Shown here one piece after another: positions 22,164-59,340 of a stretch of 64,000 nucleotides of DNA (position 1 is its first letter; each line of letters opens with the position of its first letter). The notes beneath the pieces are model-generated. The model did not search any database and was not told the origin of the DNA. It was given only the letters and a program-made list of their open reading frames with translations. Where the stretch lies: the NCBI GenBank assembly GCA_023213395.1, contig CM041465.1:41857741-41921740 (forward strand), read 5' to 3'. Made by a program: the position numbers and the translations under genes. This stretch comes from Cycas panzhihuaensis (taxonomy: Eukaryota; Plantae; Cycadophyta).

Positions 22164-25100
22164 TATTAGAAAATAGACCTGCAATAAGATAATCACAAAC
22201 AGAAACAAACACCTCCACAGGATCGAACGGTACCCTTAAGGTACCTCAAATTGTATTAACAAAACATCCTTACAATAACATTACAATATGATACACAAAA
22301 TTGTGTATTTATAATATAAGTCATGATGGAATAGTAGGACCCACTTGCATGTGGGATAAATCAAATATACATTAATATTCTAGCACTCCCCCTTAATGTG
22401 CATTTGGGTCATTTGTATTTGCAACGCTTTGTCCTTGGAAATGTTTTGAGAATGATGTCTTTAACCTGATTCTTGTCTTCAATCTTGTAGTAATGTCTTT
22501 GCTGCAGAATGATGTCTTCATCTTAATTTTCATCTTCAATTGCATCGATGCCTTTGTAAGATGATATCCTTAGCTTGATTTCTGTCTTCAATCCTGTAGT
22601 GATGATGTTAATCTAGCAGCTCTAGCAAGTGCAAATCATGATTCTTCATTGTGCCTGGTCTAGTCTTATTATGATGTAGATCCTGTAAATAACCATCTTC
22701 AATCACAACTTGCCTGTCATCATTCTCTTATATAAACTCTTGAACACTATGTACAATAGTGATTTCTTCAACCTTAGGAGTGGAGTCTTGATTAACTTAC
22801 ATACTCTTTGAGCTTGAAACAATGCTCAAAGAAGAAATATCATTCAAACTTGAATCAATACTCAAAGTAGGAATATCATCAATATAAGACTCATCCTTTA
22901 TAGAACCATCAGATTCATATTCAATCTCCCTTGAAATCAATTCATCACTTTCAATGTCTTCATCTGTAATCTCATCAATGCATTCAACAGTAGAAGTTTT
23001 GTGAGTACTCAAACATTCTTCATCTTGACATGCTATCTCATCAATGTTGATGATACTTTCTTCATTTGTTGTACCTGTACCATAACTAGCCTTAATTACT
23101 TTTTCAATCATTCGTTGTATTTCTTCAGAAGTTTATTCAAATACTTCCCTTAGAAAATCCCAAGATTCTTTAGCATTACTTTTATGTAGAATCATAGGAA
23201 TAACAAAATAGAATTTGGAAGGAAGATCAATATCATTGAATGTAACATAAATCATAATGAATGCTTTCCTATCTTTCTTCTCAAGCATTTCCTTTTCTTC
23301 TCCATCATTAGGGATATTATATTCATCAGTAACAATCTTCCATAAACCTCTAGCTATGAATAGACATCTCATTTTAATTATCCAAAAGAAGTAGTCTTCA
23401 CCATTGCACTTAGGTACTGGAAGAAATGAATCCCTTAAGTAATATTCATTTGTTTCATGAGCATATATAACCACATCATTATCCTCCATGATTGTAAATG
23501 CCATTTTCTAACACCATGTCCCTTTTCCAATCAACAAATTCACCCATCAATCTCAACAAACTTTCTCATGTCTCATGTCCCTCATATCACTGACTTCATT
23601 ATCACATCATTGCCTTATGCATCTCACATGTTACCAAATAGTCACATACAAAGAATATCTAAAGCACTTTCTTCACCATAGAATCAAAGCTTATACCACA
23701 TACATCTCACAAGAATCATGTATACCTCATGTCACCATTAAATCACCAAGACACATCACACTTCACTTAATTACCCAAAACACAACTCATGCCATTACAC
23801 CACTCAATAATTTTGCTTCCCTCCAACTCAAGTATCTTCAACAAAAGAAACCCATCCTTCTTTGCCCATTCAATCAATTAGAACACATCATCAAACATAC
23901 TTGATCTCATCCTTAACACACCTAACAATTTCTCGATCTTATCATGTAACCTCACATGTAATAAGCACCTCATTGCCTCAAATCGCTATCTTTCTTGCCC
24001 TCAAATTAGCTTTGTTATACCCATCAAGTCCTTTCACGTAAATCACATTCCACGGAGTACTTAATTGTCATATTCCATCTAATTCATTCATGCAAATACA
24101 TGTACTATCACTTCATTACCATACTATGCCATTGTCACAATAGCTCTCTCATACAAACACATGTAAGAAAGTACTCAAACTATCATTAAACAATCACCAT
24201 CATGCAACTCAAATCACTAATAGAGTGCCAAATATATTTACATCAATATAACTTAATGTCATCTCATATTGTAACAATACTCTCCCATATGCCACATATG
24301 TAAGAGAGCCTCAAACAATCACTTCATTACCATTGCCCCATTCATGTCACCATATAAATACGAAACCCTTAAATTCTTAAAAACTTATTTCTGAAAAAAT
24401 ATTATAGCTCAAAAATATATAAAATATAGATAAAAATGATGGCCTCTGAAATATGATTCCAACAATTTAGATGAAATTGAATTTTGATATCTAGATCAAA
24501 AGTTATGCTCCTTTTAAGAATTTCACAATTAGGGTTTCTAAGGGCTGTAATAGTACCTTCTAATAAACTGATAATAACCTTTTATTCAGAACTCTGATGA
24601 ACCTCAAACCACTTCCATTAGAAAGAGAATTTAAAAACATACAGAATCAAAAAAAAATTGAGGTTATTTGGATACCTGTAGCTAAAGTTATGGCTCTTTA
24701 AAGTTGAGGTTGCAGATCTATCCCAAAAATACGGCGACAGAAAAAATGCAGGCCAAAATTAATTTTGCTATAATTTTCACGCTTTCACCCCAAAATCTAT
24801 AGTGCAACCACTCAAATTTTATAGAATGAGCTATTTCGTCTCAATTTTGCTATTACTTTTTAGAAATTTCAACGTTATGGCACCTCCCAAATCACTGCTC
24901 TAATATCGAACAAAAACACCTCTCTCAACCCAGGTGCTCTGATACCATGTTGGAAAATAGACCTGCAATAAGATAATCACAAACAGAAATAAACACCTCC
25001 ATAGGATCGAACGGTACCTTTAAGGTACCTCAAATTGTATTAACAAAACATCCTTACAACAACATTACAATATGACACACAAAATTGTGTATTTATAATA

Positions 25101-25169
25101 TAAGTCATGAGGGAAGAGTAGGATCCACTTACATGTGGGATAAATCAAATGTACATTAATATTCTAACA
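22164..25169 (-). mobile_element. Gag-only non-autonomous LTR element (TR-GAG-like), inserted in the copia 5' LTR
   Basis: 222-bp LTRs at 22164-22385 and 24948-25169 (~13 substitutions by eye). TSD CATCT; PBS rc 24936-24947; PPT rc ctccccct at 22386; no pol. Confidence 0.92.
22797..23504 (-). pseudogene. copia-type gag N-terminus (PKCNGEDYFFWIIKM...AKESWDFL) followed after one in-frame TAA by an acidic low-complexity tail
   Basis: ORFs 23133-23504 and 22797-23111 are in the same frame, separated by TAA plus 7 codons. Confidence 0.75.
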
Positions 25170-28100
25170 CATCTCTATAATTATTTAGATGTTACTCAGA
25201 TTAATAAAAGTTCTATACTTAGACATGAATCTCCTAGTATTCTTTATTGAGTGTTTGATTTGTTTATGTTATTTGTTCTTCACATTACTTCTCGGTTATA
25301 TTTTCTCTTCATTTGGTATCAGAGCTAAGGGTTTTAGTTCTATGGGAAGTCATTTGGTAAGTGAGAGCCTTGTGCAATGAACTTGAGTACGAAGATCATG
25401 GCAAGTACTACAAAGATGGAGATTGAAAAGTTCAATGGCCATAACTTAGAGCTGTGGAAGCTAAAGATGGAAGATATGCTCGTCAAAAATGATCAATGGA
25501 TTATTGTAGCAGGAACAAAGCTTACGACTATGGGTGATGAAGACTGGAAGAAGCTTGATTGAAAGGCAATTAGTTCGATAAAGTTATGCCTTTCAGACAT
25601 GGTGTTATTGAATGTTACCACAGAATCTATAACTAAAGATCTGTGGAGAAAGTTAGAGGCTTTATATCAGACAAAGTCCTTGGTTAATAAGTTATTTCTT
25701 TGAAAAAATTTGTATTCACTCAGGATGAGTGATGGAGATGTAGTTGCAGATTATCTAACTGCATTTAATACCATGGTGAGCTAACTTATTTCAATTGGGG
25801 TAACAATATCTGAAGAAGACAAGTGTATTACCCTGTTATGTTCGCTTCCTAATTCTTAGGATAATCTTGTGATGACAATTAGCAGCACAACTGCTTCTAC
25901 TCTAAAATTTGATGATGTTGTTGCTCTGCTATCAGATGAGATAAGGTGAAAATCTTCTTAGGATTATTCGAAAGAAGCATTAGTAATGAGAGGTCAACAT
26001 TGGATCGTGACTAGTAAAGACCTAGGAACAGATGGCCAAAATTGAGAGGAAAATCTAAATCTCCATGTAGAGGACCTTTGCTATGTTAGAGATGTGGGAA
26101 GGTTGTCCATATGAAGAGACAGTGTCGAGTTAAGGCAGATAAGGGAAAGTCACCTGAAGCTACTTCTTCCATAGTAGCAAAAGCCTCTGATGAAGTAGAT
26201 GGCAATGTTTATTTGGCAACCTCAAGTAAGTTGTCAAATACTAAGTCTTGGTTAATTTACTCTGATGCTTCGCTTCATGTTACTCCCTATAGGGATTAGT
26301 TTTGTGAATACACAAGGATTGATGGAGGTGAGGTATTTCTTGGGGATTATTACCCATACAAAATTATAGGTCGTAGAAGGGTAAAGGTTCGATTTGGGGA
26401 TGGAAGGGTTAAAGCTATCTTTGATATGAGTCATATTCCTGATTTGGCTATGAGTTTGTTGTCTATCAATCAATTAGGTGATACAGGAATAGAAGTGATC
26501 TTCAATAAAAATAGTTGCATAATGGTTTGAGGAGCATTGATATTAGTAAGAGGGGTCTGATTTGGAATACTATACAAGCCTGATACAAGTACAGTATGTG
26601 ATGGAAGTTGTAGTCCAACTATTATAGAAAATAGCAATAAAGAAGACGGGACTTAAATATCACTTGTTAGTAAAATTATATTATGGCATTAGAGACTGTG
26701 ACATATTGGAGGGAAAAGCCTCCATGATTTATTCTCTAAAGGTATGGCAGATGACATCTTTGGAATTAATGGCTTCTTTGATTTTGATTTCTATGAGCAT
26801 TGTGTCTATGGTAAATAAAATCGGGTCAGTTTTCCTTCAAGTTCGAAGAGAGCAATGGGTATTCTACAATCGGTGCATAATAATGTTTTTGAACCTGTTG
26901 ATGTACCCTCATTGGGTAGTTCCAAATATTTTGTTTTATTCATAGATGATTTCTTAAGAAGACATGGCTATACTTTCTCAAGTAGAAATATGAAGTCTTC
27001 AATAAATTCAAAGAATTCAAGGCCTTGGTCGAGAATCAGAATGATAGGTGGATCAAGGTACTGAGGATTAATAATATAGGTGAGTTTTACTTAAAAGAAT
27101 TTGAGCAGTTCTATAAGTAGTGTGGGATAGCAAGGCAAAAGATAATTCCCTATACACCACAGCAGAACGAAGTTGTTGAAAGGATGAATATGACCTTGTT
27201 GGAGAGATTGAGGAGTATGCTCAGAGTTACTAGATTAGAGAAGAAATTCGGGGTGAAGGTTATGATGACTGCAAGCTACTTGATCAACAGATCATCGATA
27301 ACTACCTTAGTATACAAAACACCTGAAAAAGTGTGGTCTGGTAAGAAACCATCTCTTGGTCATCTTAGAGTTTTTGGTTTTGAAGCTTTTGTGCATGTTC
27401 CTAAACAGCAAAAGACTAAGCTTGATTTTAAAGAACAAAAGACTATTTTTACTGGCTATGGTAATGGTGTTAAAGGATATAAACCTTATAACCTTGAAAC
27501 ACAAAAGACTATGTATATTCATGATGTTATCTTTAGAACGAAGTCTAATTCTCTAAAGCAGGATGAAGAACCAAATGAGGAACACTCTAAGAAGGTACAA
27601 TTTGAAGTAAGGGATGAAAATTCTGCATCAGAATATGAGTTAGTTAAAGAGGAAGAACCAGTTGTAGAGGTAGCTCAATCTCAAGAACCCCACATCTTGA
27701 GGAGATCAACTCGTTAAAGAAGACAGCCTGACAGGTATATTTCTGAAGACTTTTGTTTCTCCTCTTATATTTTATCTACTATAAAGGATGATCTAGGTAC
27801 TATTCGGGAGGCTCTAGAGTCAAAAGAGAGCCAACTCTAGATGAAGGCCATGCAGGAAGAAATGATGGCCTTGGACAAAAATAATACGTGGGATTCGGTG
27901 GATCTGCCTAGTAGCAAAAAACTTATTGATAACAAATGGATCTTCAAGAAGAAGTTTTGAGTAGATGGTACTGTGGAAAAAAGTACAAGGCTTGCCTAGT
28001 AACAAAAGGCTATTCCTAAGTCAAGGGAATAGATTTTGGTGAGGTATTTTCTCTTGTTGCAAAAGTTATTTCAATTAGATTTTTATTAACTATAACAGCT

Positions 28101-29306
28101 GCCTATGACCTTGAGGTGGATTAAATGGATGTGAAGACTGTATGTCTTTACAGTGACCTCGAGGAATAAATTTATATGTTGCAGCTTGAAGGGTTTGAAG
28201 TTGCAGAAAAGGAGGATATAGTGTGTAGGTTAAAGAAGTCATTATACGGCTTGAAACAATCACCAAAGATGTGGTATCAAAAGTTTGATTCACATATATT
28301 GGCGGATGGCTTTGTGTGCAGCAAAGTAGATCATTGTATTTATTATAAGCAAGTTGGTGATCATTTTGTTATTCTAGCTTTATATGTTGATGACATACTT
28401 TTAGTTAGTAACAATAAAAGAATGAACCAACTTATGAAAGACTAATTGGAATCTCACTTTGAGATTAAGGACTTTGGTGCTGCACATTTTATTTTAGACA
28501 TTGAGATTAAAAGGCATAGGAGAAATAAGAAGATTTAGCTTAGCCAAAGATAATACATTAAAATAATATTACAACGATTTAGGTTACAAGATAGTAAACT
28601 GAAAGAAAATAATGTGATGGAGAGCATGGCAGAACATAAACAAATAATCACAGATCAATACATCATTATTACATAAACAAGAATCATTTGTATTCAATTC
28701 ATTGTTGTGAAAAGAGTATTATAAATGTCTAAAATGAAGGTGATGTCTAAAGACACCAAGGTTGCACAGCCCTCAGAATATATAGTTTGGGGAAGGAGGG
28801 AAACTCCTCAACCCCTGAAATTTAAATAACAATAAAATATAACTTAACTTAAATCAAATTAATCTTACCTTATACTTACCTACATATATAAGTATCCACA
28901 TGTGTAAATTGATAGTAGTGAGGTGTGAACTCCTGGTTGGAAGGTGGGAGTGGGATGATGAGCATTAACCCCAACATTCTCCCCCTTAATGGTCATCACG
29001 AACAATGTCTTCTCTTTAATCTTGTGGAATTTATACTTGAAAAAAACTTTAAAAATTTGTCTTGTAGCTTGATCTTTATTAACTTGCTTCAAATTTATTG
29101 CAATGTGTGTCTTCTCCATTGAATGGTGTAAAAATACTGTAAGTAAATTAAGCTTGATTCAAATGTGTATGTGTAGCTGTAATTTTGACTTTATCAACTA
29201 GAACTTTAAGAAAACTTTAAACTTAAATTTTGTCTTCTGAAAACTTTATGTTGTGAACAACTATCATATCATCATATCTCTCCCCCTTAAATGGAGGATC
29301 AAGTTT

Positions 29307-29702
29307 TTATGCAATAAGATGATCATACATTTGACTTGAATCTTCCTTGGTCTTTTCATTAGAATCCACCTGTTCTGTCACATGTCTCACATACTCAATA
29401 AAATCAATATTAAATTCATTGAGGGTATCTCTCCTATAAGTAGAAATCAATATGTCCCACATGGATTTGGAAGTTGTTAATTCGTAAACTCTAGAAAACA
29501 CTTCATCATCTATAGTACAAAATAATAAAGCTAACGCTTCATTGTATTTTTTAATGTTTTCCTTAATACTAACATCATAGTCATCTTGTACGTATTTCTA
29601 AAGATTATATGTAATAAAATAATTTTGCATAGTTTGATACCATAGTGAAAAATTATAGCCATCAAATATAGGAAATTGTACTTGATCAAGATTGATTGCC
29701 AT
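29307..29702 (-). pseudogene. truncated copia-type gag
   Basis: MAINLDQVQFPIFDGYNFSLWYQTM...SKSMWDILISTY, with one internal stop. Confidence 0.8.
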
Positions 29703-31170
29703 TTTATCAAGAACTTTAGTACATAAAAAAAAATTTGATTTTACTAAGTTAAAAAACTTAATAAATGATAAACTTATAAGATATAATTTTAGATAAAATT
29801 TGAAATAAAAATAAATATATGAGTAAATTCAAATATAACTAAGATCCTTTTAATTATGTAAATCTTAATTAAAACATTGGTGATAAAAAATAAAGAAGTC
29901 TTAACCTTTTATTTTTTAAATGTTGGGGTATGTCAAATGCTCAAATTTAGTAGCTTCAAAGTTGTACTAAACAAAGTTAGAATAGCCTGAAATTATACCA
30001 AAGTGAAGATCAATGAAAAAACTATTCAATGGAACTGACCGTTTTGAAAATGGTTTCCTACAATTCAATATTTGAGTGAACAAAGGAGACAATCCTCTTT
30101 TTTAGGCTTAACAGGAGTATGGGGCTCAAAATATTATAAAAATTCTAATAAAATACTTATAAAATATTACAAAATGATCAATTATAGTTTAGAAGACTAC
30201 TCAATATATTTTTTAATTAAAAACTTTGAGAAATAATATATAAAAATTGTGTAATAATGATAGATTAGAGACTATGATATACCTCTACTTTAATAGATTT
30301 GAAAATCTAAAAAAATACTTTAAAACTTATAAATAATAATGTCAGTTCAAAGAGGAGTGAGTCAGCTTCCAAATGAAACTAGCAAAACTGAATTCTGATG
30401 TAAAATAAAAAAGTTATAATGAAAATGACAATAAGTACTTTTATGGTAAAATGTTTAAAAAGTGTTAAAGTGTCACTTTCAGTGATTAAAATAATGATTA
30501 AAATAAATTTTAAAAAATAAAATAAATAAATGGTAATAAAGTTTATAAACAATAGATAACTGCAGAATAGATATGGGTGGAAAATAGTTTCTCGGTGATA
30601 AAATATAATCTGATGAAAAATAGATTTTATGAAAATAGTTTTAAAATGTTCTAAAAATCAATGCCTAGCTTTGGATTGACTAAAACTTGGTCAAATCAGC
30701 TCCAAATAGGTCATATGACCAGCCAAAATCATACCTCAAAAAATTCTAGATGCAATGGAATATGTTCTGTCAGAAACTGATAACCCAGTCAAAAGTTATG
30801 GCAAAAATTTGCTAAGTACCCTATGTGAAATAAAAAAATTTAAAAAAATAAAAGGAAAAAATTATTTATAAAAGTTGTTGGCCCCTTTTGATAAGCTATG
30901 GTCACGTGTTGGGTACATAGGGCTAGGGGATAAATGTTAAAAGGGGCTTATATCCCTTAAACCTTAGAATTGAAAGTATATATAATTAAATTTAATTTTT
31001 AAATAAACTTTAGAAAGAAATATTTAAAAATTAAATATTTTGAATCAAAAAGAGATTGTCGCTTCATTGCCGCCATCTGAGATGTCGTTGTTGCTGCACC
31101 TATCACCACCACAACCATGGAGACGCCGCTGTTATAGGGGGGAACAGAGAATGACCGCTCAGATGAACTT

Positions 31171-31231
31171 GGGGTGGTGGCGCAGTTAGTTAACACATAG
31201 GTCTCATAGCTTACTGAGCGATCCTGAGGTC
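31171..31231 (+). pseudogene. 5' two-thirds of an intron-containing elongator tRNA-Met(CAU), decayed
   Basis: ggggtggtggcgcagttagttaacacataggtctCATa[gcttactgagcg]atcctgaggtc matches the recalled plant tRNA-Met(e) GGGGTGGTGGCGCAGTTGGCTAGCGCGTAGGTCTCATA-intron-ATCCTGAGGTC. T-arm and 3' acceptor strand are absent. Confidence 0.85.
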
Positions 31232-31650
31232 TTCATCACATGGTGCAATATTCTTAAACGTGTACCAAATAGTGCCCTATGGCTTCTCAAGTTCCCTACA
31301 GCTGGAGAGAGTAGATTGTGGGCATTTGTTGCTGCATAGGGTGTCTAACCTGATCAAATTATATTCACAAATATTGCTGCAAAGAATGAGCATATAGGGT
31401 GGCTAATCTTTTCCTTGATACACCATTATGCAATGCTCATACCACAGGCACTGATGTTCTCTGGGTTGGTCTACATGTTGTAGCTCTTCCTCTAGAGAAG
31501 ATGGCTACACGAGTAGTTGGATCTATTTGTTTGGCCACAAGTCTTAGAGAAGAGATGGTTGCCAGCAATATGCAAGAGTATGAGGGGAAGGTTGTTAGTC
31601 TTACTCAATGCCCTGCAAGGCTTCAAGCACTTACAACCAAACTTAGAATG
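31220..31650 (+). pseudogene. SEC: Uninterrupted fragment of O-GlcNAc transferase (SECRET AGENT-type, GT41 C-terminal domain)
   Basis: [26 protein letters not shown]...PDQIIFT...LFLDTPLCNAHTTGTDVLW...LPLEKMATRV. Two stops and a frameshifting deletion near 31398. Confidence 0.9.
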
Positions 31651-31653
31651 TAA

Positions 31654-31936
31654 TGTCAAGTGAATGGGAGGCTACAAGGCTTGAGGCATTGCTTTGGATG
31701 TCATTTCTTTTGGAAAGGCATCGCACAGAGGTTGCAAGAGGAGATTTTATTATGTTTTTCAACCAAATATTTGATGCACTATGTAAACTCTTAGTAGATT
31801 TAGATGCTAATATGTAGAGCGTTGTACATCTTTTTTATCGCCTTGTTAAGGATATTGTTACAAAAAGTGATAAGTTCATCATTGAAGAATTCATACCATT
31901 GCTAAGGGAACAAATGAACGTTCTCAATCCTTATGT
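31654..31936 (+). pseudogene. VAC14: VAC14 fragment with exon order scrambled
   Basis: SSEWEATRLEALLWMSFLLERHRTE | VARGDFIMFFNQIFDALCKL..DANM*S..HL..RLVKDIVT.SD.F.IEEFIPLLREQMNVLNPY. Confidence 0.85.
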
Positions 31937-32178
31937 AATATAGTTGAGGATCCAGCACGGACTGTAGAATATACCATTGACAGAACTGTTATAAGCATCC
32001 CCAGTATAAGCATACCTGTGGACACAGCTTTCACATGATTATGAAGACCATTGCATTCATAGTCCCTAGGTTCACTTGAAAGCCCATTGTAGCACAAGTA
32101 CGTGCAGTATAGAGATATTATAGAAGCTGGCAAAAGACTGTCATTCACCTTAGGATGGAGTGCAATGACTGCAAATGT
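31936..32178 (-). pseudogene. Serine incorporator (SERINC/TMS family) fragment
   Basis: FAVIALHPKVNDSLLPASIISLYCTYLCYNGLSSEPRDYECNGLH...VYSTVRAGSST. Confidence 0.88.
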
Positions 32179-32254
32179 AATGTAATACTTAAATGTAATG
32201 TAATGCTTGATGTAATGTAATGTAATGTTTGAATGTAATGTAATGCTTGATGTG
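32174..32254. repeat. TGTAA-based minisatellite, about four (A)ATGTAATGTAATGCTTG units
   Basis: Read directly from the sequence. Confidence 0.9.
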
Positions 32255-32310
32255 TATGGGAAAATGGGTAATTCTTGGAACAGAGTTTTATTGTTATTTG
32301 TAAAGATAAA

Positions 32311-32616
32311 AGAGCAAGGGATAATGTGAAGTTTTTAACAACTATTAAGTGTTATTTCAAGATAATTTCTAGTGAACCTTTGCTAAGGGTTCTTGAAATA
32401 ATAAGTCCTATGATGAATGCTCTTTGTATGGTTTGGATTCTTTCATATTACTATTCAGATGATTCTAACATGGGCTATCTTATAGAGCGTATAGCACATC
32501 AGATTGTAGAAAGAGTCTCAGAAGAGATAAATCTCAAGATTTTATTCAAGATGCTTGCTAATGATGCTGAATGTAAATTAAATATGGCAAAAAATGTATT
32601 GGACTCTTGGAGGTTT
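32311..32616 (+). pseudogene. Axonemal dynein heavy chain N-terminal tail fragment (DNAH10/inner-arm I1-alpha-like)
   Basis: ARDNVKFLTTI..YFK...PMMNALCMVWILS.YYSDDSNMGYLIERIAHQIVERV...INLKILFK resembles the recalled DNAH10 EAKDNVRFLST...AMMSALRMVWIISRHY..DERM..LMERIAWEIAERV. Confidence 0.8.
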
Positions 32617-33119
32617 TAAAAATAACTTACAACAATAAAGTGGCTTCAGTGCATAGAAACATACAATCATAGAGAAAATATAATACATAGATATTTTCTT
32701 TAGCAATTCTTTTATATATACCAAATAAATAAAATGTATATAAAAGTAGACTTTCCTATTCCCCTTTTTCTTGTTTTCTATCTACTTTTGACAAAGTAGG
32801 TTGAAGAAGTCTTGCCTGGAATATATGCTAGATCTTTTAAATATATTAATGAAAATAAATCAATAAAATAAGAAGTATATATATTTGTATCTAAAATCTT
32901 TCAAATATATTGGAGTAGATGTATCACAAAACCAAGAAATATATATGAGTTTAAATCTAAAAATAAATAAAAAAGAACTTGGTAAGCAGTTGTAGTAGAT
33001 TTGTAGCAGGTTGACTTCCAAAGATGAGATCTTCTTCCATACAAATCAAAGCTTTAAACAAATTTCTCTAATAGGCAGATCTACTATAATATATGACTTA
33101 TTGGGCTAAATATGCACTA

Positions 33120-33500
33120 AAAACTTACAGATCTAAAAAAAAACTTGAAAAAATGGTCAAATATGTGATAAAATATATAGAGATAAAGAATATATATAAC
33201 AGATTTAAAAAAAACTTGAATAAATATTATAGATCTAAAATAAATATTACAGATCTAAAGTAAATATTACTGATATGTAGGCAATATTACAGATCTGAAA
33301 CAAATATTACAGATATAAACAAAATAAACTAGAAAAATGGTAAAATATTTGATAAAATAAGCAGATCTGAAGAATATATAGCACATCTGAAGAAAACTTT
33401 GAATAAATATTGTTTGCAACTGTGCTTCTGCACAGATCTAAAAAAAGTATTAGATAAATAAACAAAATATGCTTGAAAAATGTCAAATATTTGATAAAAA
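33120..33500. repeat. Degenerate tandem repeats (aaatattacagatctaaa, ~20 bp) in the element leader
   Basis: Repeated (C)AGATCT units; clearest at 33220-33320. Confidence 0.7.
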
Positions 33501-36500
33501 TATATAAAATTTATTGATAAAACCTCTTATAGAGTGATAGAAACTTGATATTTGTTGTTTATAGCTATGCACCTACACAAATCTGAAGAAAATCTAAAAT
33601 ATATTTGTTATATCACAAGTAAAACTCAAGAATAATCAAATATGATAAAAAATAAAAGAAACTTGCTAATAAACTTTGCAGAAAATAAATATGACCAATA
33701 TTTACTAACTTGTGAGTAGATCTACTTTAAATACTAATAAATCTTCTATCTTCTTCAAAAAACTTCAAATGGAGATGTAACAGCCCAACAATTTCTACTC
33801 TAATATCAAATGAAGGAAAATAATGTGATAGAGAACAAGGTAGAACATAAACAAATAATCATAGATCAATACATCATTATTACATAAACAAGAATCCTTT
33901 GTATTCAATCCATTATTGTGAAGAGAGTATTACAAATGTCCAAAATCAAGGCAGTGTCTAAAGACACCAGGGTTGCACACCCCTCAAAATATATAGTTTG
34001 AAGGAAGAGGGAAACTCCTTAATCCCTAAAATTTAAATAACAATAAAATATAAGTTAACTCAAATTAACTTAAATCAAATCAAACTTACCTTATACTTAC
34101 ATATACATGCGAGCACCCACATATGTAAATTGATGAGAGTGAGGTGTGCACTCCTAGTTGAAAGGTAGGAGTGGGGTGATGAGCATTAACCCCAACATAA
34201 ACCAATTAATGTTCCTCTTCTTGCTAGTTTAAAATTATCAGTTGAATAATGCCCAAAGACTCACCAAGAAGTTGAAGACATGGAATTTATCCCTTATACT
34301 AGTATTATTGGTAGCCTGATGTATATGATGGTTTATACTCAACCAGATATTACCCATGCAGTGGGAGTAATTAACAGGTATATGTCAAATCCAGGCAGGG
34401 AGAATTAAATGGCTGTGAAAAGGATTTTTAGATATCTGTGAGGTACATCAGACTATGGAATTTTCTATCAAGGAGATCCGATGGAGAGTAGAATAGTAAA
34501 TCCAAGAGGTTTTATTGATGTTGATTAGACTAGAGATCTTGACAGCAAAAGATCTACAAGCGGATATGTTTTTACCCTTTGTGATGGCGCAGTTAGTTGG
34601 ATGAGTAAAAGACAACAAGTTGTGATACTTTCTAGCACAGAAGAAGAGTATATGGTAGCTACTTATATGTACAAAAGAAGTGGTTTGGTTAGAGAGATTA
34701 TACACAGATATTGACTTTAAGCAGGATGTTGTGAGGATAGATCGCAATAGTCAAAGTGCAATCTACTTAGTAAAGAACCCTATTTTTTATACCCGGTCAA
34801 AGCATATTAATGTGTAGTTCCATTTTGTAAGGGAAATGGTTCAAGATCACAAGGTGGACTTGCAGAAGATTGCTACACAAGAGAATGTTACAAACTCATT
34901 GACTAAGATTGTTGGCACAGAAAAATTTAAATGGTATAGAATTGCAATGAGTCTTTGTGATTTTGATATTCAATAGTTGTGTATGCAGGTTTTCTTATAA
35001 AGTGTTCAACAAGTGGGAGATTGTTAAATATGTTGAACACTTTGCAAGTGTTACATAGGTATAGGCGTTACACCCAAACCCTTTGTGGGATCTCAGGGCC
35101 CGTTGTAGGGCCCCCGACTGGGGGGTTTGGGGGGGTAGTAGCCCTCGAGGTGGGGGTTTGAGGATGGGAGCTCCTAAGAAAAAACAATTGGTGTCTTATA
35201 GGGGTCTTTGTCAACCCAATAGTTTATGCCCATTGTATTGTAAAACCGCAAGGCGGTATCTTGTAATGTTATGTCTATATATTCTTATGTGACGGCACAT
35301 GTAATATATGATACGAAGATGATGGTGGGATCATGGATGAGTCGAGAAGAAGAGTTGGAGTTCATCTCTGTTATTCTTTAGTTATTTCTCAGATTAATAA
35401 AAGGTTTATGCTTAGACCTGAATCTCTTAGTGTTCTTTGTTGAGTATTTGATTTGTTTATGTTATTTGTTCTTTGCATGGTTTAGAGTTCTATTATCACA
35501 TTGCTTCTTGGTTATATTTTCTCTTCACATTTCTCCTCTTATTTGGATCAGGTCTAGAATTCCTATCTATGAATAAGACCTAAAGGTACTTCCCTACTTA
35601 AATTCTAAGAAAAATAACTATCCATAAGCCTGAAGGCATATTATTTTGGTATCAAAGCCAAGTTGTCTATCTACAATATCTAATTACTTAAAGATTTTAG
35701 GGTTTGCATAATTATATGAATAGTCGTACAACCTCCATGTGGAAATATACAAACCAAAAAAAAAAGTGCTTAGAATTTGATAAAAATTTAACAAAATGTA
35801 TGCAATCATACAGACACCATTATATCCCAAAGGACCATCATGAAAATCTCACTTGAAAAGTAAAAAAATAAAGAAAAACTTGGATGTTAGTTTGAGGCTT
35901 CAACTATAATTTTCTCTAAAATTTCTCAAGCAATCTCTTTAAAACTAGTCTTAATCTCTTCTTTTTTACTAGATCTATCTTTAAGTATAAATTTGTTATA
36001 TTAAATTTTATGATTCCTTTCATACGAGCAAAAAGTGTTTTCAAATCCTAGTCACCCATTTCTATTTTGGAGTCATTTTCTCGAAAACCAGACATCCAAT
36101 TAAAAAACTGACTACAAATTTAGATATGCAACTAAAAAGCTTTGATTTGAGCCTTTTTCTTTTTTAATCACACAATTCCATATAACTATATAACCATGCA
36201 AAATCATACCTTCAAATAGAAATTTAATTTTTTTAATAATTTTTTTTCTCTTCTAAATTTCTAGTCAAAAAAATAAAAACTCTTTATGACTTGAGATACA
36301 TATATAGGAAGGGGAATATATAGCTATATCTAGTCATAAATCCTTCATTAGCAAGTATACCTCGCCTAAATATTTCTTATAAAATGAGCATATTGTTATA
36401 AGCCCTCTTTATAAGTAAGTGTATCCCTATAAGCAAGCGTATCTCAAATATACCATGTCTCATGATCAAGAGGATCAGTCCCAACTAGACATCACCAAAC

Positions 36501-41868: not shown

Positions 41869-44800
41869 ATCTCATCGGTTGCAAGGATGTTTTGAATGTT
41901 GTTAATACAATTTAAGGTACTTTAAGGGTATTGTCTGATCCTGAAGTGGTTTGTTTCTATTTTGTGAATATTATTGTAATATAGGTTTGTTTTTTCAATA
42001 TGGTATTAGAGAAAGGTCGAGAGAGGTCTATCGAATTGGTTGGTGAAACCCTAATTCTATTAGCGTGTGAGGAGGTGGCTCGTTCTTTATTTGATAATGC
42101 CACTAAGCTTGCCAAGTCCTAGAATTAAGTGGAGGTGATTTTGATGTTTATTGAGTAATTAAGAGGTGTTTGAAGCCACCCGTGTATGGAGAGAATCCAT
42201 ACACCTATTTGCCAGCCTTATGTTGCCAATAGGAGAGTGCATAGAACCTACAGAGCCATAAAAGGAGAGTGCAAAGAACTTGCAAAGTTGTGGAATGAAT
42301 AAATTACAATCAAATAAAATTACAATCAAATATTCAAGGTATACTCATTGTTTTCCAATATATTAATAACCCACTTAATATTCTAGGGTTTGATTGAATA
42401 CATTCATCTACCCAGTAATAAATATATTGATCACTACTGTATTTAATCATGCACACATTAATATGGGTGATAATCTCTAAATGACATCGTGATGCCCAAC
42501 GTAATATTGTTACCTTCGTCTGCAATTTATGTATTTATGTCAGTCGCGTGATAAATTTATGCCTGCATATAGTATTTATTCACTAGCCAACGGTTGATAA
42601 TTTTATCACCGTAAGATATATCAATACATTGATATACTCCAATGTTTTGTAGTCGCTCGTTTGTTGGTTTATGATGGCAGTTGTACTGTTTTACAGTCGC
42701 CCATGCATGATGTGTTAGTAGTAACTGCATCATCGTTTGATATTGCAGCCAAACATCTGTGTGATAATCATTTCCAACAGCAAGTCTCTATATATGCGTT
42801 CACACATTCTACACGCTGCCTGCATCTTATTTGTTCGACCATCATTTTTCGCCACCGCGATTTATTGTATCTTCACCTGCGTTTGCGTTTGAGTGACTAT
42901 GCATCTGATTCGTTGGTGAGACACCCCTCTGTATATGGTATGCAAGTATTTTATACAGTCGTATCTATTCTATTCACCTCTAATTTATTACAAATCACAG
43001 TAGTTTATCATTTACCCTTGCATGATGTATTATATGCAATGTCACCCACACATTAAGTTATTATCACTTGCTAATAATTTTGGTTGCCCATGTCTGCGTG
43101 ATGAGATATTTACAGCCGCTCCTGTGCATATTTCTATTCAGAAACTACATATATATTTGCATATCATTTGCCATCGTCCTCTGAGTGTGGATATATTCAC
43201 CGTTGTTTTTATATTTGTAGTGGTTGTCTTTCAATATTGGTGTCACCCGTCAATAATGATCTCTGCGTCTTTATATTTTATTACCTGTGAATTTATTTTG
43301 CCTCGTGTGTTGTTGTCTTAATATGCATTTATTTGGATATATATTTTTTGGGCATTTGATAATTTATATAAAGTAACGTTTGTTATATTTACGACAGCCT
43401 GTTTATAATGTCGCCCAATGCCTTTGATATGAATCATTTGATTTAATATTGCATTGCACCCTTTTCTATCAAGTTGTCATTTTTGAGGTTAATATATATT
43501 TGCCTAATGTTAGCATTATTTTTATCCTGATACCCTTTTGTGATATAAAATGAGACCTTATATTTATGAATTACCCATCAAATGATCTTGATCATATGTA
43601 ATTTGATTTTCATCTTTTGTAAGTTTGAAATAGTATTTGATACGAGTAGACATATATCATGTATCATATGATGTGTTATGGAGATTCATAATATGAGACA
43701 TTTATAAGGCATCAATGGCAATGTCTACTATATAGTGTGTTGGTAACCTAGTTCTCTCTTATATGTGATTACGTAAGAGAGTAAGTTGGAGGCATGAGAG
43801 ATGGGTAATATGAGGCTCTCTAGCATGCGATTGCATGAGAGAGTATTTTGGCAATGTGAGGTGACATTAAAACATGCTGATGTGAATGTTCTGGCACTCT
43901 TAATTGGTGTCATGTTGATTGGCGATTTGATCTGAAGATATTGCATTAAGCACGCTTCAATTATGGGTGAAAGTAGGCGATATGAGATGATGTTTGATGC
44001 ACTTTGCATATATCCATATAAAAAATCTATTGGGCAAAGAAGGGCATAAAAAGAGCATACTTGATAGCATGGTCTAATTGACTAAATAGACAAAGAAGGA
44101 TGAGTTTTGTTGAAGATACTTGAGCTGTAGGAAAGCAAACTTTGTTGAGTGCTATAGTGGCATGAGTTGTGTTTTGGGCAATTAAGTGAAGTGTGATGTA
44201 TTTTGGCGATTTAATGGTGACGTGAGGTGTGCATGATTTTTGTGAGATGTATATGGTATAGACATTGATTTGATGGTGAAATAAGTGTTTGAGATACTCG
44301 TTGTATGACTATTTGGCAATATGAAAGATGCATAAGGCAATGATGTGACGATGAAGTCAGTGACGTGAGGGATATAAGACATGAGAAAGTTTGTTGAGAT
44401 TGATTAATGGGCGAATTACCAATGTTATGTGAGTTTGTTGATTAAAAAATGGACATATTGTTTGAAGATACACTTTTAATCATGGAGGAAAATGATGTGG
44501 TTATATATGTTCATGAAAGAAATAAATATTACTTAAGGGATTCACTTCTTCTGACACCTAAGTGTAATGAAGCAAACTATTTCTTTTGGACAATTAAAAT
44601 GAGATGTTTTTTTATAGCTAGAGGTCTGTGGAGACTTGTTATTGATGGATACGATATTCCTAAGGATGAAGAAGAAAAGGAAATGCTTGAGAAGAAAGAC
44701 AAGTATTTATCATGATTCTTACTGCATTAAACAAGACTAATCTTCCTTCTGCATATCATTTTGTCATTCCTAAGATTCAACATGTAAGTACTACCAATAA

Positions 44801-45778
44801 AGCTTGAGATTTTTTAAAGGATGTATTTGAATAAACTCTTGAAAAGATACAATGAATAATTAAAAAGGCAAATAAGATCAGTGATAGTTATGATATAGGT
44901 AAAACGAATGAAGAGAGTATTATCAACACTGATGAAATAATATGTGAAGATGAAAAATGTATTAGTACTAATGAAATTTCTACTAAATGTAAAAAAACTA
45001 TGGTTGAATGTATTAATGACACTACAACTACTATTGAAGACATTGAGAGCGATGGATAAATAAAGGTTTTATTTAGATGACACTATTATTTCAAGGGAAA
45101 TTGAATATGAATCTGATGGTCCTATAAAATATGAGTCTTATATTGATGATATTCCTACTTTCAGTATTGATTCAAGTTCAAAGAGTATATAAGCCAATGA
45201 AGATTCCGCTCGAAACGTTACTGTTGTATATGGTGATCAAGAATTTATACAGAATAATAATGACAAGCAAGTTGTATTTGAAGATGGTCACTTACAGGAT
45301 CTACATCAAAATCAAGTTAAACCAAGCTTAATGAAGAATCAATGTTTGCACTTGCTAGAGTTGTTGCAGCAAAGATATCAATGTAGAATTGAAGATGGAA
45401 AATCAAATTGAAGACACCATTCTACAACAAAGACATCACTACAAGATTGAAGACAATGATCAAGTTGAAGATATCATCTTCAAGACATTTCTAAGGACAA
45501 GGCATTATAAATATAAATGACCCAAATGTGCATTAAGGAGAAATGTTAGAATATTAGTAATGCATATTTGTTTTGTCCCACATATAATTGGGTCCCACAC
45601 TCACTATCATATCGTGTATTATAAATACACATGTAATATATCATATGATCTCATCGGTTGTAAAGATGTTTTGAATGATGTTAATACAATTTGAGGTACT
45701 TTAAGAAAATTGTTCGATCTTGGAGGTGTTTTTGATCTGCTTTGTGATTATTATCTTGTGTAGGTTAGTTTTTCAACG
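41765..45778 (+). mobile_element. Second member of the TR-GAG-like family, inserted in the gypsy integrase
   Basis: LTRs 41765-42000 and 45544-45778; PBS tggtattagag at 42001; TSD atacc/gtacc. gag 44449-45200 is homologous to 22797-23504. (TA)n expansion at 41841-41868 in the 5' LTR. Confidence 0.9.
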
Positions 45779-52349: not shown

Positions 52350-52856
52350 TATAAAATTATTCGCTCCAAAGCTTATTTTCCAAGTCGACAACAAAGTTAG
52401 ACTTCATTTAGACTGTAAAAGATTTAAACATCACCATAAGCTTAAGCCTATCTGTTTTGGTCTTTAAACTATACTTCAAACTATTGGACCAAATGTTTTT
52501 TGACTCGACTTGCCTGCTTATCTGGGCATTCATAATATCGTCAATATCAATCAATTCTAATTGTATAAACCACCATAACTTGAAGTTGAACCCATCGTCG
52601 CTCATCCTTTTGATACCATTCCAAATTTTTATCCTCCCCTTTCACCAAATACCATTATCAACACTCAACAACAACGGACCAAGCAACAGACTACTGCTAC
52701 TTATCTTGTTAGTCAAAAAGGGACTTTGTCCACCAAAGCCAAATGGATTTCTAAAACAATTCTTTCTAAACAGAGAGAAAATAATGAATATTTGTGTAGT
52801 CCTAATATATATATGCATAAACTTAATATTCATAATATTCTTTAGGTTATTTATGT

Positions 52857-55800
52857 ATCCTCAGCAAAGAATTAAATCATTAATGCATCGCATTTAATAT
52901 GTTCAGCTTGTCATTCAGTCAGAAAGGTTATCATACAGTCAAAAAGGTATATGCTTTGACACAAATACCCCTGGCAACGAATACATCAAAAAATATATGC
53001 CTATGAATCATGGAGCCCATGGAAATGAAAACTTGAGAAAACGTGATGAATCAGAATGCCAAAACAGAAGAAAATGAATTGAAAAAATCGTTAACTTCAC
53101 ACACTAAAGCGACCTACTGTGGAGCTTCTATAGGAAAATCATACGGAAAAATCAACCTTTCAATTGCAATTCCAGTTAAAATGAAGAGTCCTATTAGCGA
53201 GACGCCGGAGACACTGTAAAATGACAAGCAATGCTAGCTTGAGTGCTTGGTGCAGGAACCACATTAGCTGGTGCTAAGGATATCACTTAAAGGGTACTTA
53301 AGAACTTAATTAATAGTTAGGTATACAGACGACATATCCTACATGAAACACCTATGTGTCCTACATACAACAAACTAAAATTTGTATAAATATGTAAGTC
53401 ATTCTTTATAGAAATCAATAAAGGGATAAGTTATTCATTCTTCCTCTTACCTAACTTAAGTCTAAAGTTCCTATCTATGAACAAAACCTAAAGATACTTC
53501 CCTACTTGAATTCTAAGAAAAAGAACTATCCACAAGTCTGAAAGCACATCATCGTGACTACTTTTATACCTCTATGTTAAATTGTGATTGTTTTTTTGCA
53601 TGATTGTCATGGCAGATTTTTATTACAAATACATAATACTACTTAACAAGGTTATTGATTGTTGAAAGATCATAACTCAAGGGATGCAGCATTCCATAGC
53701 ATGCAATTGTTAGAAATGAACAAGTGATCATGATCACACTGTGTTTGAAGTGAGAGCCAAGTCATTGTGTTGTAGTCTTTCCTCGCATATGGTTGTATGT
53801 GCAAATGATCTTGATTATTAATGCTCTAACATGATTAACTTTGTGTGTTTTGATTGTTGTGTATTCCAATATCATGACTGATGCCATGAAAAGTGTGGCA
53901 TACAAATTGTACAACCTGGCACGAAAGCACTTCAAGAATACAGCATACCATCATGGGCATTCCATTGAAATGAATCTCATAAAACATTCATTCGGTCTTT
54001 GTATAGTCTTTCCTTATATATGGTTGTATGTGCAAATGATCTTGATTATTAATGCTCTAACATGGTTAACTTTGTGTGTTTTGATTGTTGTGCATTCCAA
54101 TATCATGATTGATGGCATGAAAATTTTGACATACAAATTGTACAACCCGGCACTGAAGCACTTCAAGAATATAGCATACCATCATGGGCATTCCATTGAA
54201 ATGAATCTCATAAAACATTCATTCACATCATAGGCTACTTATGCATAGTTATGTACATCCTTCAACCATGGTGCGGGCATTATCATTGTCAATAGTCTGG
54301 GATTGATTATTTTGGTTAATCAACCATAGAACAAATGTGCATATTCAACGTAGTCCTATATGATTAATACTTTTGTTGAGGAAAATTGTTTTAGGGTGCT
54401 TGTTTGAGATCTACAATGATATGCATACACACACACACACATATATTGTAAAAAGGTTGTAACTTATAAAAAAAAGTATTGATGAAAAAGTTACAACTTG
54501 AATTGGCTTTGTGATTGGACTTCAATGCTTGAATAATCGCATTTATGTTATATGGATAATCTTATTTATATTATATAGGTGGACACATCCTTCAAATCAT
54601 GGAAAAAGGAACGCTTTCAGAGACATTTTTCAGGGTAAAATATTAGCATTCCCAAATAAAATATTCTCTACAGCTCATTATTTTATTTAATTTTAAAAAC
54701 TGGGATCAACACCAAGTTGATGAAACACAAGAATTACATGATATGATACAAACTTGTAGATCTCCATCCTTTTTTTGAGATTTTTATTTAACAAAACTGT
54801 TGACCCATGTATCCATATTAAGTAAAAGCAGTAGTTTATTCAATGACATCAAGTTGGATTTCGTAACCATACTTCATCCTCAAGAAAGAATTAAATTATT
54901 AATGCATCGCATTTAATATGTTCACTTGTCATTCGATCGAGAAAGGTTATCATACAACAAAAAGGTATATGCTTTGACACAAATACCCACAACGAATACA
55001 TCAAAAAATATATGCCTATGAATCATGGAGCCCATGGAAATGAAAACTTGAGAAAGCGTGATGAATCGAATGCCAAAAGCGAAGAAAATGAATTGAAAAA
55101 TCGTTAACTTCACACACTAAAGCGACCTGGGTGGAGCTTTATAGGAAAATCATACGGAAAAATCAACCTTTCAATTGCAATTCCAGTTAAAATGAAGAGT
55201 CCTATTAGCGAGACGACAGAGACATCGTAAAATGACAAGCAATGCTAGCTTGAGTGCTTGGTGCGGGAACCACATTAGGCGGTGCTCAGGATATCACTTA
55301 AAGGGTACTTAAGAACTTAATTAATAGTTAGGTATACAGACGACATATCCTACATGAAACACCTATGTGTCCTACATACAACAAACTAAAATTTGTATAA
55401 ATATGTAAGTCATTCTTTATAGAAATCAATAAAGGGATAAGTTATTCATTCTTCCTCTTACCTAACTTAAGTCTAAAATTTCTATCTATGAACAAAACCT
55501 AAAGATACTTCCCTGCTTGAATTCTAAGAAAAAGAACTATCCACAAGTCTGAAAGCACATCATCGTGACTACTTTTATACCTCTATGTTAAATTGTGATT
55601 GTTTTTTTGCATGATTGTCATGGCGATTTTATTACAAATACATAATACTACTTAACAAGGTTATTGATTGTTGAAAGGTCATAACTCAAGGGATGCACCA
55701 TTCCATAGCATGCAATTGTTGGAAATGAACAAGTAATCATGATCACACTGTGTTTGAAGTGAGAGCCAAGTCATTGTGTTGTAGTCTTTCCTCGCATATG

Positions 55801-58800
55801 GTTGTATGTGCAAATGATCTTGATTATTAATGCTCTAACATGATTAACTTTGTGTGTTTTGATTGTTGTGTATTCCAATGTCATGACTGATGCCATGAAA
55901 AGTGTGGCATACAAATTGTACAACCCGGCACAAAAGCACTTCAAGAATACAGCATACCATCATGGGCATTCCATTGAAATGAATCTCATAAAACATTCAT
56001 TCGTCTTTGTATAGTCTTTCCTTATATATGGTTGTATGTGCAAATGATCTTGATTATTAATGCTCTAACATGGTTAACTTTGTGTGTTTTGATTGTTGTG
56101 CATTCCAATATCATGATTGATGGCATGAAAAGTGTGACATACAAATTGTACAACCCGTCAAGCACTTCAAGAATATAGCATACCATCATGGGCATTCCAT
56201 TGAAATGAATCTCATAAAACATTCATTCACATCATAGGCTACTTATGCATAGTTATGTACATCCTTCAACCATGGTGCGGGCATTATCATTGTCAATAGT
56301 CTCGGGATTGATTATTTTGGTTAATCAACCATAGAACAAATGTGCATATTCAACGTAGTCCTATATGATTAATACTTTTGTTGAGGAAAATTGTTTTAGG
56401 GTGCTTGTTTGAGATCTACAATGATATGCATACACACACACACACATATATTGTAAAAAGGTTGTAACTTATAAAAAAGTATTGATGAAAAAGTTACAAC
56501 TTGAATTGGCTTTGTGATTGGACTTCAATGCTTGAATAATCGCATTTATGTTATATGGATAATCTTATTTATATTATATAGGTGGACACATCCTTCAAAT
56601 CATGGAAAAAGGAACGCTTTCAGAGACATTTTTCAGGGTAAAATATTAGCATTCCCAAATAAAATATTCTCTACAGCTCATTATTTTATTTAATTTTAAA
56701 AACTGGGATCAGCACCAAGTTGATGAAACACAAGAATTACATGATATGATACAAACTTGTAGATCTCCATCCTTTTTTTGAGATTTTTATTTAACAAAAC
56801 TGTTATGCTGACCCATGTATCCATATTAAGTAAAAGCAGGTAGTTTATTCAATGCACATCAAGTTGGATTTCGAACCATACTTCATCCTCAAAAAGAATT
56901 AAATTATTAATGCATCGCATTTAATATGTTCAGCTTGTCATTCGATCGAGAAAGGTTATCATACGATCAAAAGGTATATGCTTTGACACAAATACCCCTG
57001 GCAACGAATACATCAAAAAATATATGCCTATGAATCATGGAGCCCATGGAAATGAAAACTTGAGAAAAGCGTGATGAATCGAATGCCAAAGCGGAAGAAA
57101 ATGAATTGAAAAAATCGTTAACTTCACACACTAAAGCAGCCTATTTGGTGGAGCTTTATAGGAAAATCATACAGAAAAATCAACCTTTCAATTGCAATTC
57201 AGTTAAAATGAAGAGTCCTATTAGCGAGACGACAGAGACATCAGAAATGACAAGCAATGCTAGCTTGAGTGCTTGGTGCAGGAACCACATTAGCTGGTGC
57301 TCAGGATATCACTTAAAGGGTACTTAAGAACTTAATTAATAGTTAGGTATACAGACGACATATCCTACATGAAACACCTATGTGTCCTACATACAACAAA
57401 CTAAAATTTGTATAAATATGTAAGTCATTCTTTATAGAAATCAATAAAGGGATAAGTTATTCATTCTTCCTCTTACCTAACTTAAGTCTAAAATTCCTAT
57501 CTATGAACAAAACCTAAAGATACTTCCCTGCTTGAATTCTAAGAAAAAGAACTATCCACAAGTCTGAAAGCACATCATCGTGACTACTTTTATACCTCTA
57601 TGTTAAATTGTGATTGTTTTTTTGCATGATTGTCATGGCAGATTTTTATTACAAATACATAATACTACTTAACAAGGTTATTGATTGTTGAAAGGTCATA
57701 ACTCAAGGGATGCACCATTCCATAGCATGCAATTGTTGGAAATGAACAAGTAATCATGATCACACTGTGTTTGAAGTGAGAGCCAAGTCATTGTGTTGTA
57801 GTCTTTCCTCGCATATGGTTGTATGTGCAAATGATCTTGATTATTAATGCTCTAACATGATTAACTTTGTGTGTTTTGATTGTTGTGTATTCCAATGTCA
57901 TGACTGATGCCATGAAAAGTGTGGCATACAAATTGTACAACCCGGCACGAAAGCACTTCAAGAATACAGCATACCATCATGGGCATTCCATTGAAATGAA
58001 TCTCATAAAACATTCATTCAGTGCTGTATAGTCTTTCCTTATATATGGTTGTATGTGCAAATGATCTTGATTATTAATGCTCTAACATGGTTAACTTTGT
58101 GTGTTTTGATTGTTGTGCATTCCAATATCATGATTGATGGCATGAAAAGTGTGACATACAAATTGTACAACCCGTCACTGAAGCACTTCAAGAATATAGC
58201 ATACCATCATGGGCATTCCATTGAAATGAATCTCATAAAACATTCATTCACATCATAGGCTACTTATGCATAGTTATGTACATCCTTCAACCATGGTGCG
58301 GGCATTATCATTGTCAATAGTCTGGGATTGATTATTTTGGTTAATCAACCATAGAACAAATGTGCATATTCAACATAGTCCTATATGATTAATACTTTTG
58401 TTGAGGAAAATTGTTTTAGGGTGCTTGTTTGAGATCTACAATGATATGCATACACACACACACACATATATTGTAAAAAGGTTGTAACTTATAAAAAAAA
58501 GTATTGATGAAAAGGTTACAACTTGAATTGGCTTTGTGATTGGACTTCAATGCTTGAATAATCGCATTTATGTTATATGGATAATCTTATTTATATTATA
58601 TAGGTGGACACATCCTTCAAATCATGGAAAAAGGAACGCTTTCAGAGACATTTTTCAGGGTAAAATATTAGCATTCCCAAATAAAATATTCTCTACAGCT
58701 CATTATTTTATTTAATTTTAAAAACTGGGATCAGCACCAAGTTGATGAAACACAAGAATTACATGATATGATACAAACTTGTAGATCTCCATCCTTTTTT

Positions 58801-59340
58801 TGAGATTTTTATTTAACAAAACTGTTATGCTGACCCATGTATCCATATTAAGTAAAACAGGGTAGTTTATTCAATGCAGCATCAAGTTGGATTTCAGAAC
58901 CATACTTCATCCTCAGCAAAGAATTAAATTATTAATGCATCGCATTTAATATGTTCAGCTTGTCATTCAGTCAGAAAGGTTATCATACAGTCAAAAAGGT
59001 ATATGCTTTGACACAAATACCCCTGGCAACGAATACATCAAAAAATATATGCCTATGAATCATGGAGCCCATGGAAATGAAAACTTGAGAAAACGTGATG
59101 AATCAGAATGCCAAAACAGAAGAAAATGAATTGAAAAAATCGTTAACTTCACACACTAAAGCAGCCCTGCTGGTGGAGCTTTTATAGGAAAATCATACAG
59201 AAAAATCAACCTTTCAATTGCAATTCCAGATTAAAATGAAGAGTCCTATTAGCAGAGACGCTGACAGAGACACTGTAAAATGACAAGCAATGCTAGCTTG
59301 AGTGCTTGGTGCAGGAACCACATTAGCTGGTGCTGAGGAT
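52857..59340. repeat. ~2.02 kb tandem array (3 units plus the original gene segment): GDPDL 3' end, gypsy LTR half and flank
   Basis: Units start at 52857, 54876, 56885 and 58909. Each holds an internal ~230-bp tandem duplication (e.g. 53770-54225) and a short (CA)n tract. Confidence 0.92.
53552..54300 (+). pseudogene. Possible MULE/MuDR transposase remnant (SWIM-like region), split by the gypsy insertion (left part ~21330-21612)
   Basis: Weak motifs only: IPLC*IV...VMADFY, HTVFEVR, GCMCK, ATYA..VHP. Many stops. Confidence 0.3.

Follow-up and report, generated by a model that had tools for sequence, protein, structure and literature searches.

A VAC14 fragment with a reversed exon 12-exon 5 join in a plant copia element, probably copied from a circular RNA

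Circular RNAs have left DNA copies in mammals, where Dong et al. (2016; PMC4897178) described circRNA-derived pseudogenes of circRFWD2, circSATB1 and circDIAP3 in mouse and of circPRKDC and circCAMSAP1 in human. Mouse circRFWD2 is represented by 33 such pseudogenes, which carry a reversed exon 6-exon 2 join, vary in length and have LTR-rich flanks. The same study cautioned that other reverse-transcription paths may give such joins, and left the mechanism open (PMC4897178). Besides, LTR template switching is described, in the accessible part of Tan et al. (2016; PMC5131818), as a source of retrocopies that show microsimilarity and derive from more than one parent gene; the main text of that paper, as far as it was available, nowhere contains the word 'circ'. 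In plants, the maize LTR element Bs1 carries pieces of three host genes in an expressed chimeric frame, according to the available portion of a review (PMC13317346) in which, to the same extent, the string 'back-splic' is absent. In gymnosperm genomes, capture of exons by copia and gypsy elements is reported as common in the accessible sections of a survey (PMC13477047), so that the VAC14 cassette described below is as such ordinary; exon order and circular RNA lie outside the scope of those sections ('circ' has 0 occurrences).

Full-text literature searches, which covered few subscription papers, returned no report of a circRNA-derived pseudogene in a plant, and the word 'pseudogene' is absent from the plant circRNA reviews PMC11276256 and PMC9860190. 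The initial annotation of the present locus had presented a plant LTR-borne case as without known example. A plant case does appear to be unreported, but LTR-flanked circRNA pseudogenes were already known from mouse (PMC4897178).

The VAC14 fragment and its reversed join

The window, by which we mean the whole analysed stretch of 64,000 nucleotides, contains two adjoining segments of VAC14 on the plus strand. The first (31654-31730) is a piece of exon 12, aa 347-372, that starts 5-7 nt inside the exon and ends at its 3' end; the second (31731-31937), spliced and decayed, covers aa 121-189 and consists of exon 5 (31731-31850), exon 6 (31851-31879) and the first 58 nt of exon 7. By tblastn, 31653-31730 matches aa 347-372 of the VAC14 protein P0091 (E 1e-9) and 31725-31937 matches aa 119-189 of the same protein (E 4e-28). 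That the two segments are joined in frame at 31730/31731 (cacagag|gttgcaaga), as initially annotated, agrees with the translation, since frame +3 is open across the join and reads SSEWEATR...RHRTE, then VARGDF...NPYV; one in-frame stop lies within 31731-31937. The order of the segments had at first been called reversed by some 200 aa, and this is borne out by tblastn and by the related proteins: among the 120 listed, all 118 that have both motifs carry EATR C-terminal of VxRGDF, so that the window has the opposite order, over about 227 aa from start to start. A 56-residue query across the join gave 296 protein matches, of which the 120 listed are plant VAC14, and none of these 120 matches without a break across the join. 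VARGDF and RLEAL are common to the window piece and to the Taxus VAC14 protein P0089, which suggests a gymnosperm host. The gene model behind P0089 has its N-terminus fused to retrotransposon pol text, likely by mis-annotation.

The exon map obtained by comparing cDNA L001 with genomic L022 places introns after aa 30, 68, 90, 120, 160, 169, 217, 249, 278, 314, 344, 372 and 394 and at later positions, those after K120 and E372 being in phase 0. It follows from this map that the join connects the 3' end of exon 12 with the 5' start of exon 5, over a loop of 756 nt, and that both its ends are phase-0 exon boundaries, as first supposed. Among 80 VAC14 loci from a metagenome scan, an intron AG stands immediately 5' of V121 in 46 of 46 intron-bearing loci (14 distinct sequences), and a GT immediately 3' of E372 in 33 of 33 (11 distinct sequences), no other state being found among the usable loci of the 80. 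At V121, nine more loci are spliced or intronless, and one edge case and two spurious motif matches were dropped; at E372, seven more loci are already spliced. ACAGAG, for which a check as an exact exon 3' end had been proposed together with one of the adjoining exon 5' start, thus closes exon 12, and the letters after it open exon 5. Both splice sites are kept in angiosperm loci and in loci L077-L080, which, from an inferred label, we take to be probably moss, and indels in VAC14 gene models agree with them. The assignment is drawn from conserved loci and relatives' contigs rather than from the host's own gene, in which both sites should hold.

The two matches overlap by four nucleotides in host-like mRNA contigs, a point overlooked in the initial annotation: the letters AGGT at 31729-31732 fit both parents, so that the breakpoint may lie anywhere in this 4-nt microhomology, the splice site included. 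Splice sites and microhomology had at first been set against each other as an either/or; the match to splice sites stood, whereas the opposition itself did not, as both are present. With AG|GT at both exon junctions, a template switch becomes unlikely rather than excluded.

The introns after aa 160 and aa 169, which separate exons 5, 6 and 7, are absent from the window piece, which indicates that it passed through RNA. Both of its outer ends are mid-exon, and only the inner join coincides with splice sites. There is no poly(A) tail, VAC14 abutting SERINC at 31937, a state that is non-diagnostic since switch products are tail-less as well. The piece is decayed, and no function is implied.

Contigs from other runs bear on the join in both DNA and RNA. 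DNA contigs extend over it in at least six cases in run X2 and at least two in run X7, and four of the eight listed (X2 records 7 and 8, X7 records 12 and 13) have at least 31 letters on each side. These contigs differ from one another by substitutions and one 13-nt deletion; the join is real and exists in several variants under two species labels. The four bridging DNA contigs come from two other runs, which rules out an assembly artefact. In X2 and X7, some contigs continue in exon 7 past 31937, at least one of them with a stop codon, and one X7 contig still has intron sequence, its 391 additional letters lying between 31851 and 31875. The VAC14 sequence of the window copy, and what the contigs show of the relatives' decayed copies, lies within exons 5-12, a weak test as the contigs are shorter than 300 nt at the join. 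Three X2 contigs with the exon 12-exon 5 join begin at 31676, 22 nt further in, behind a different upstream sequence that has no match within the window; they reflect either an alternative arrangement or another capture event.

On the RNA side, two host-like mRNA contigs, X12 record 2 and X17 record 3, each from an RNA-type run, align with 31656/31659-31732 and with 31729-31937; the former has 2 differences from the window in 77 nt and 15 in 209. Both are full-length (2426 and 3131 nt) and colinear, with exon 5 first, and the loop between the two junctions measures 756 nt in each (282+474 and 279+477), the same as for exons 5-12 in L001. X12 also contains a second VAC14-like contig. None of the three contigs from two RNA-type runs bridges the join, contigs being prone to drop rare forms.

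The carrier element and the other captured pieces

The fragment lies in a non-autonomous copia element of 5,598 bp (28600-34197, minus strand) bounded by the 5-bp target-site duplication TAAAC (28595-28599 and 34198-34202). Its 3' LTR (28600-28976, minus strand) and 5' LTR (33811-34197, minus strand), both of the TG...CA type, are 85.4% identical over 391 columns, with a K2P distance of about 0.14. A polypurine tract, TTAAGGGGGAGAA on the minus strand (28977-28989), stands immediately before TGTTGGGG, and in the same orientation a decayed primer-binding site, TGATATTAGAG (33798-33808, minus strand), follows two nucleotides after the 5' LTR, with two mismatches to the intact site of an outer element at about 25316. 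A decayed copia gag remnant is found at 29310-29597 (minus strand; Pfam Retrotran_gag_2, E 3e-7, above cut-off), and no pol was detected in the open stretches of 28978-31180 and 32616-33807 or by Pfam on the cassette and seven stretches outside; this is the anatomy of a non-autonomous Ty1/copia element. The outer element is an older copia (25168-35529 with approximate ends, plus strand; LTR-like repeats D9 and D19; Pfam SH3_retrovirus at 27121-27714), and by inspection the carrier interrupts its RT region, RT-like text being present on both sides of the target-site duplication. Elsewhere in the window, 52830-59340 holds about three and a half tandem 2.0-kb units, 98-100% alike in parts, and another LTR element family is present in two copies of opposite orientation (22166-25181 and 44077-45758), 73-95% alike in pieces.

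From the primer-binding site towards gag, the cassette consists of a dynein heavy chain fragment, an AATGT array, a SERINC fragment, VAC14, a SEC fragment and a tRNA-Met-like 5' part, all the captured pieces being antisense to the element except SERINC. The dynein fragment (32308-32610, plus strand; Pfam DHC_N1, E 6e-19) matches the lycophyte protein P0121 at 65-67%. It would fit a cycad, Ginkgo or a fern, where it would be ordinary, better than a conifer, and would be the fossil of a lost gene if the host were a seed plant without flagella. Apparently it exists in many copies; judging from loose ends at 32320 and 32609, some members of the family would lack dynein. The (AATGT)n array (32174-32253) is followed by SERINC (31936-32180, minus strand; Pfam Serinc, E 1.8e-19), which host-like contigs match over 31936-32180 and which overlaps VAC14 by 2 nt. 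Between VAC14 and SEC lies a 6-nt filler, ATGTAA (31648-31653), that resembles the AATGT array at 32174; AATGT units thus stand at either side of the VAC14-SERINC block (31648-31657 and 32174-32253), as if the block had entered an AATGT array. SEC (O-GlcNAc transferase) is represented by aa 788-933 of P0228 (31220-31647, plus strand; Pfam Glyco_transf_41, E 2e-11 and 1.2e-18; tblastn) and shares 12 nt (31220-31231) with the tRNA-like piece, a join that an X10 DNA contig spans (31131-31367).

The tRNA-like piece itself (31171-31231, plus strand), with a CAT anticodon, was recognised from an X10 DNA contig and by inspection: the contig matches up to 31231, and beyond it has a T-loop and a terminal stretch that complements 31171-31176. 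No tRNA was returned by ARAGORN on the whole window or by Rfam on 28500-34300 and 31150-31260. We regard the piece as a putative tRNA-Met from inspection and one loose contig end, and it presumably retains an unspliced intron, as in plant elongator tRNA-Met.

The 12-nt and 2-nt overlaps, the 6-nt filler, the partial copies and the several parents (SEC, VAC14, SERINC and dynein) are traits of LTR retrocopies, and overlaps at several joins of the cassette point to an element history rich in template switches. The depth of contigs summed over three deep runs, which is not a copy number, rises from SEC/VAC14 through SERINC to dynein, a gradient that gives a mere hint of stepwise capture.

Possible origins of the join

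The VAC14 piece is probably a reverse-transcribed copy of a back-spliced circular RNA of exons 5-12, 756 nt in length, placed in the leader of the copia element. Back-splicing would have used the donor of exon 12 and the acceptor of exon 5. On the resulting circle, the reverse transcriptase would have begun copying in exon 7, passed exons 6 and 5, crossed the back-splice join and departed from exon 12 when still 5-7 nt short of its start. The antisense orientation of VAC14 speaks against a simple minus-strand switch and would fit a plus-strand switch or filler repair, so that the copying may have occurred in plus-strand synthesis, which starts at the primer-binding site and meets the leader first, or the cDNA may have served as filler in break repair. 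The dynein, SERINC, SEC and tRNA-like pieces would likely have been added by separate short-homology switches, and the VAC14 piece likely multiplied together with its carrier. The fuller scenario, in which copia machinery copied the host circRNA antisense in plus-strand synthesis and amplified it into a family found in several related species, is about evenly poised between true and false.

A circular template is favoured by the match to splice sites on both sides of the join, the mid-exon outer ends, the missing introns and the colinear mRNAs with their 756-nt loop. It is also favoured by the precedent of LTR-flanked mouse circRFWD2 and by the back-splicing of VAC14 in Arabidopsis, for which at least ten distinct circles, with 0-9 reads per library, are recorded in the supplement of PMC7511659 as far as accessible; the ten listed all have AG/GT flanks when mapped on L022. 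Conversely, the 4-nt microhomology, the lack of a bridging RNA contig and the antisense orientation weaken it, as do the rarity of the circles and the absence of an exon 5-exon 12 circle (which would be chr2:311164-312652) from the at least ten listed in that accessible material. A second Arabidopsis study (PMC5623955) contains no VAC14 circles in its nine supplements, the 12 of 40 mentions examined in PMC7037704 place the VAC14 gene in GO tables alone, and none of the papers listed for VAC14 and circRNA concerns plants by title. Of the retrotransposed circular RNA first proposed for this locus, the splice-site ends, the processed state and the location in an LTR element were upheld, whereas the circle itself is absent from the RNA contigs of two runs.

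The same join could arise on linear VAC14 mRNA if the reverse transcriptase, on reaching the start of exon 5, switched by means of AGGT to the last letters of exon 12, 756 nt further 3'. For this, abundant linear mRNA suffices, the AGGT overlap is exact in both host-like mRNAs, overlaps occur at other joins of the cassette too, and LTR retrocopies, as the accessible part of PMC5131818 describes them, typically show microsimilarity where the template is switched and can combine more than one gene. The coincidence with splice sites would then follow from the AG|GT consensus of exon junctions, yet such landings are scarce: in three VAC14 coding sequences, the exon boundaries of L004 and L006 being transferred by protein alignment, only 26 of 8482, 18 of 8163 and 10 of 8353 backward jumps with at least 4 nt of exact homology reach two exon junctions (0.12-0.31%). 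Back-splicing explains the join without coincidence; given these 0.1-0.3% and the mid-exon position of both outer VAC14 ends, we regard the jump as unlikely. Nevertheless, scanning many windows will catch rare coincidences, which counts against the circle. If backward jumps are assumed in 5-20% of captured pieces and circle-derived joins in 0.02-0.2%, inputs that are plausible but unmeasured, the odds for a circle extend from about one to two up to twenty to one on those assumed rates.

Two further routes would need neither a circle nor a jump. A tandem duplication in a VAC14 paralog or allele of the host, with breakpoints in introns 12 and 4, followed by capture of the spliced linear mRNA, would yield exactly the exon 12-exon 5 join, and in frame, exons 5-12 forming a phase 0-0 block; the second VAC14-like contig in X12 shows that paralogs exist. 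However, the two full-length host-like contigs, of 2426 and 3131 nt, keep the colinear order, and the join occurs in none of the listed proteins, which makes this route very unlikely. Trans-splicing between two VAC14 pre-mRNAs would give a linear RNA with repeated exons and, after capture, the same join, which sequence cannot separate from that of a circle; linear RNAs of this type are considered less common than circles, and this origin appears less likely still. The element's own transcript cannot have been spliced to give the join, since VAC14 is antisense to the element.

Significance and comparison with described systems

If the circular origin is correct, circRNA-derived pseudogenes would extend from mammals to plants, and one of them would be tied to a carrier with readable anatomy, which bears on how circles become reverse-transcribed. 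Under the fuller scenario above, LTR template switching would be the route of circRNA retroposition left open by Dong et al. (PMC4897178), and giant plant genomes would keep, in their LTR elements, a datable fossil record of ancient back-splicing. A cheap test at genome scale would compare the frequency of reversed exon joins among LTR-captured pieces with the 0.1-0.3% expected by chance. In addition, such DNA copies, if transcribed, could mimic back-splice reads in plant circRNA surveys.

The cassette resembles the retrocopies described in the accessible part of Tan et al. (PMC5131818) in its partial intron-less host pieces within an LTR element, its short overlaps, its several parents and its further non-autonomous rounds. 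It differs from them in that the exons of one piece are reversed in order and, of the four coding pieces, three are antisense; sense orientation, which we infer from their model for a minus-strand switch, is found in SERINC alone. Like Bs1, as covered in the available portion of PMC13317346, it is a plant LTR element carrying several host-gene pieces, in contrast to which the present cassette is decayed and of mixed orientation.

From the circRNA pseudogenes of Dong et al. (PMC4897178), finally, the VAC14 piece differs in its plant host, in its carriage by a full element (both LTRs, TSD, PBS, PPT and a gag remnant) and in being one of five captured host pieces, in antisense; besides, Dong et al. 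began with circles seen in RNA, whereas the VAC14 circle is here proposed from DNA. It shares with them a non-colinear exon join, copies of differing extent and an association with LTRs, and it shows some of the features on which their high-confidence cases rest, namely a reversed join at true splice sites, a processed state free of introns and no poly(A) tail.
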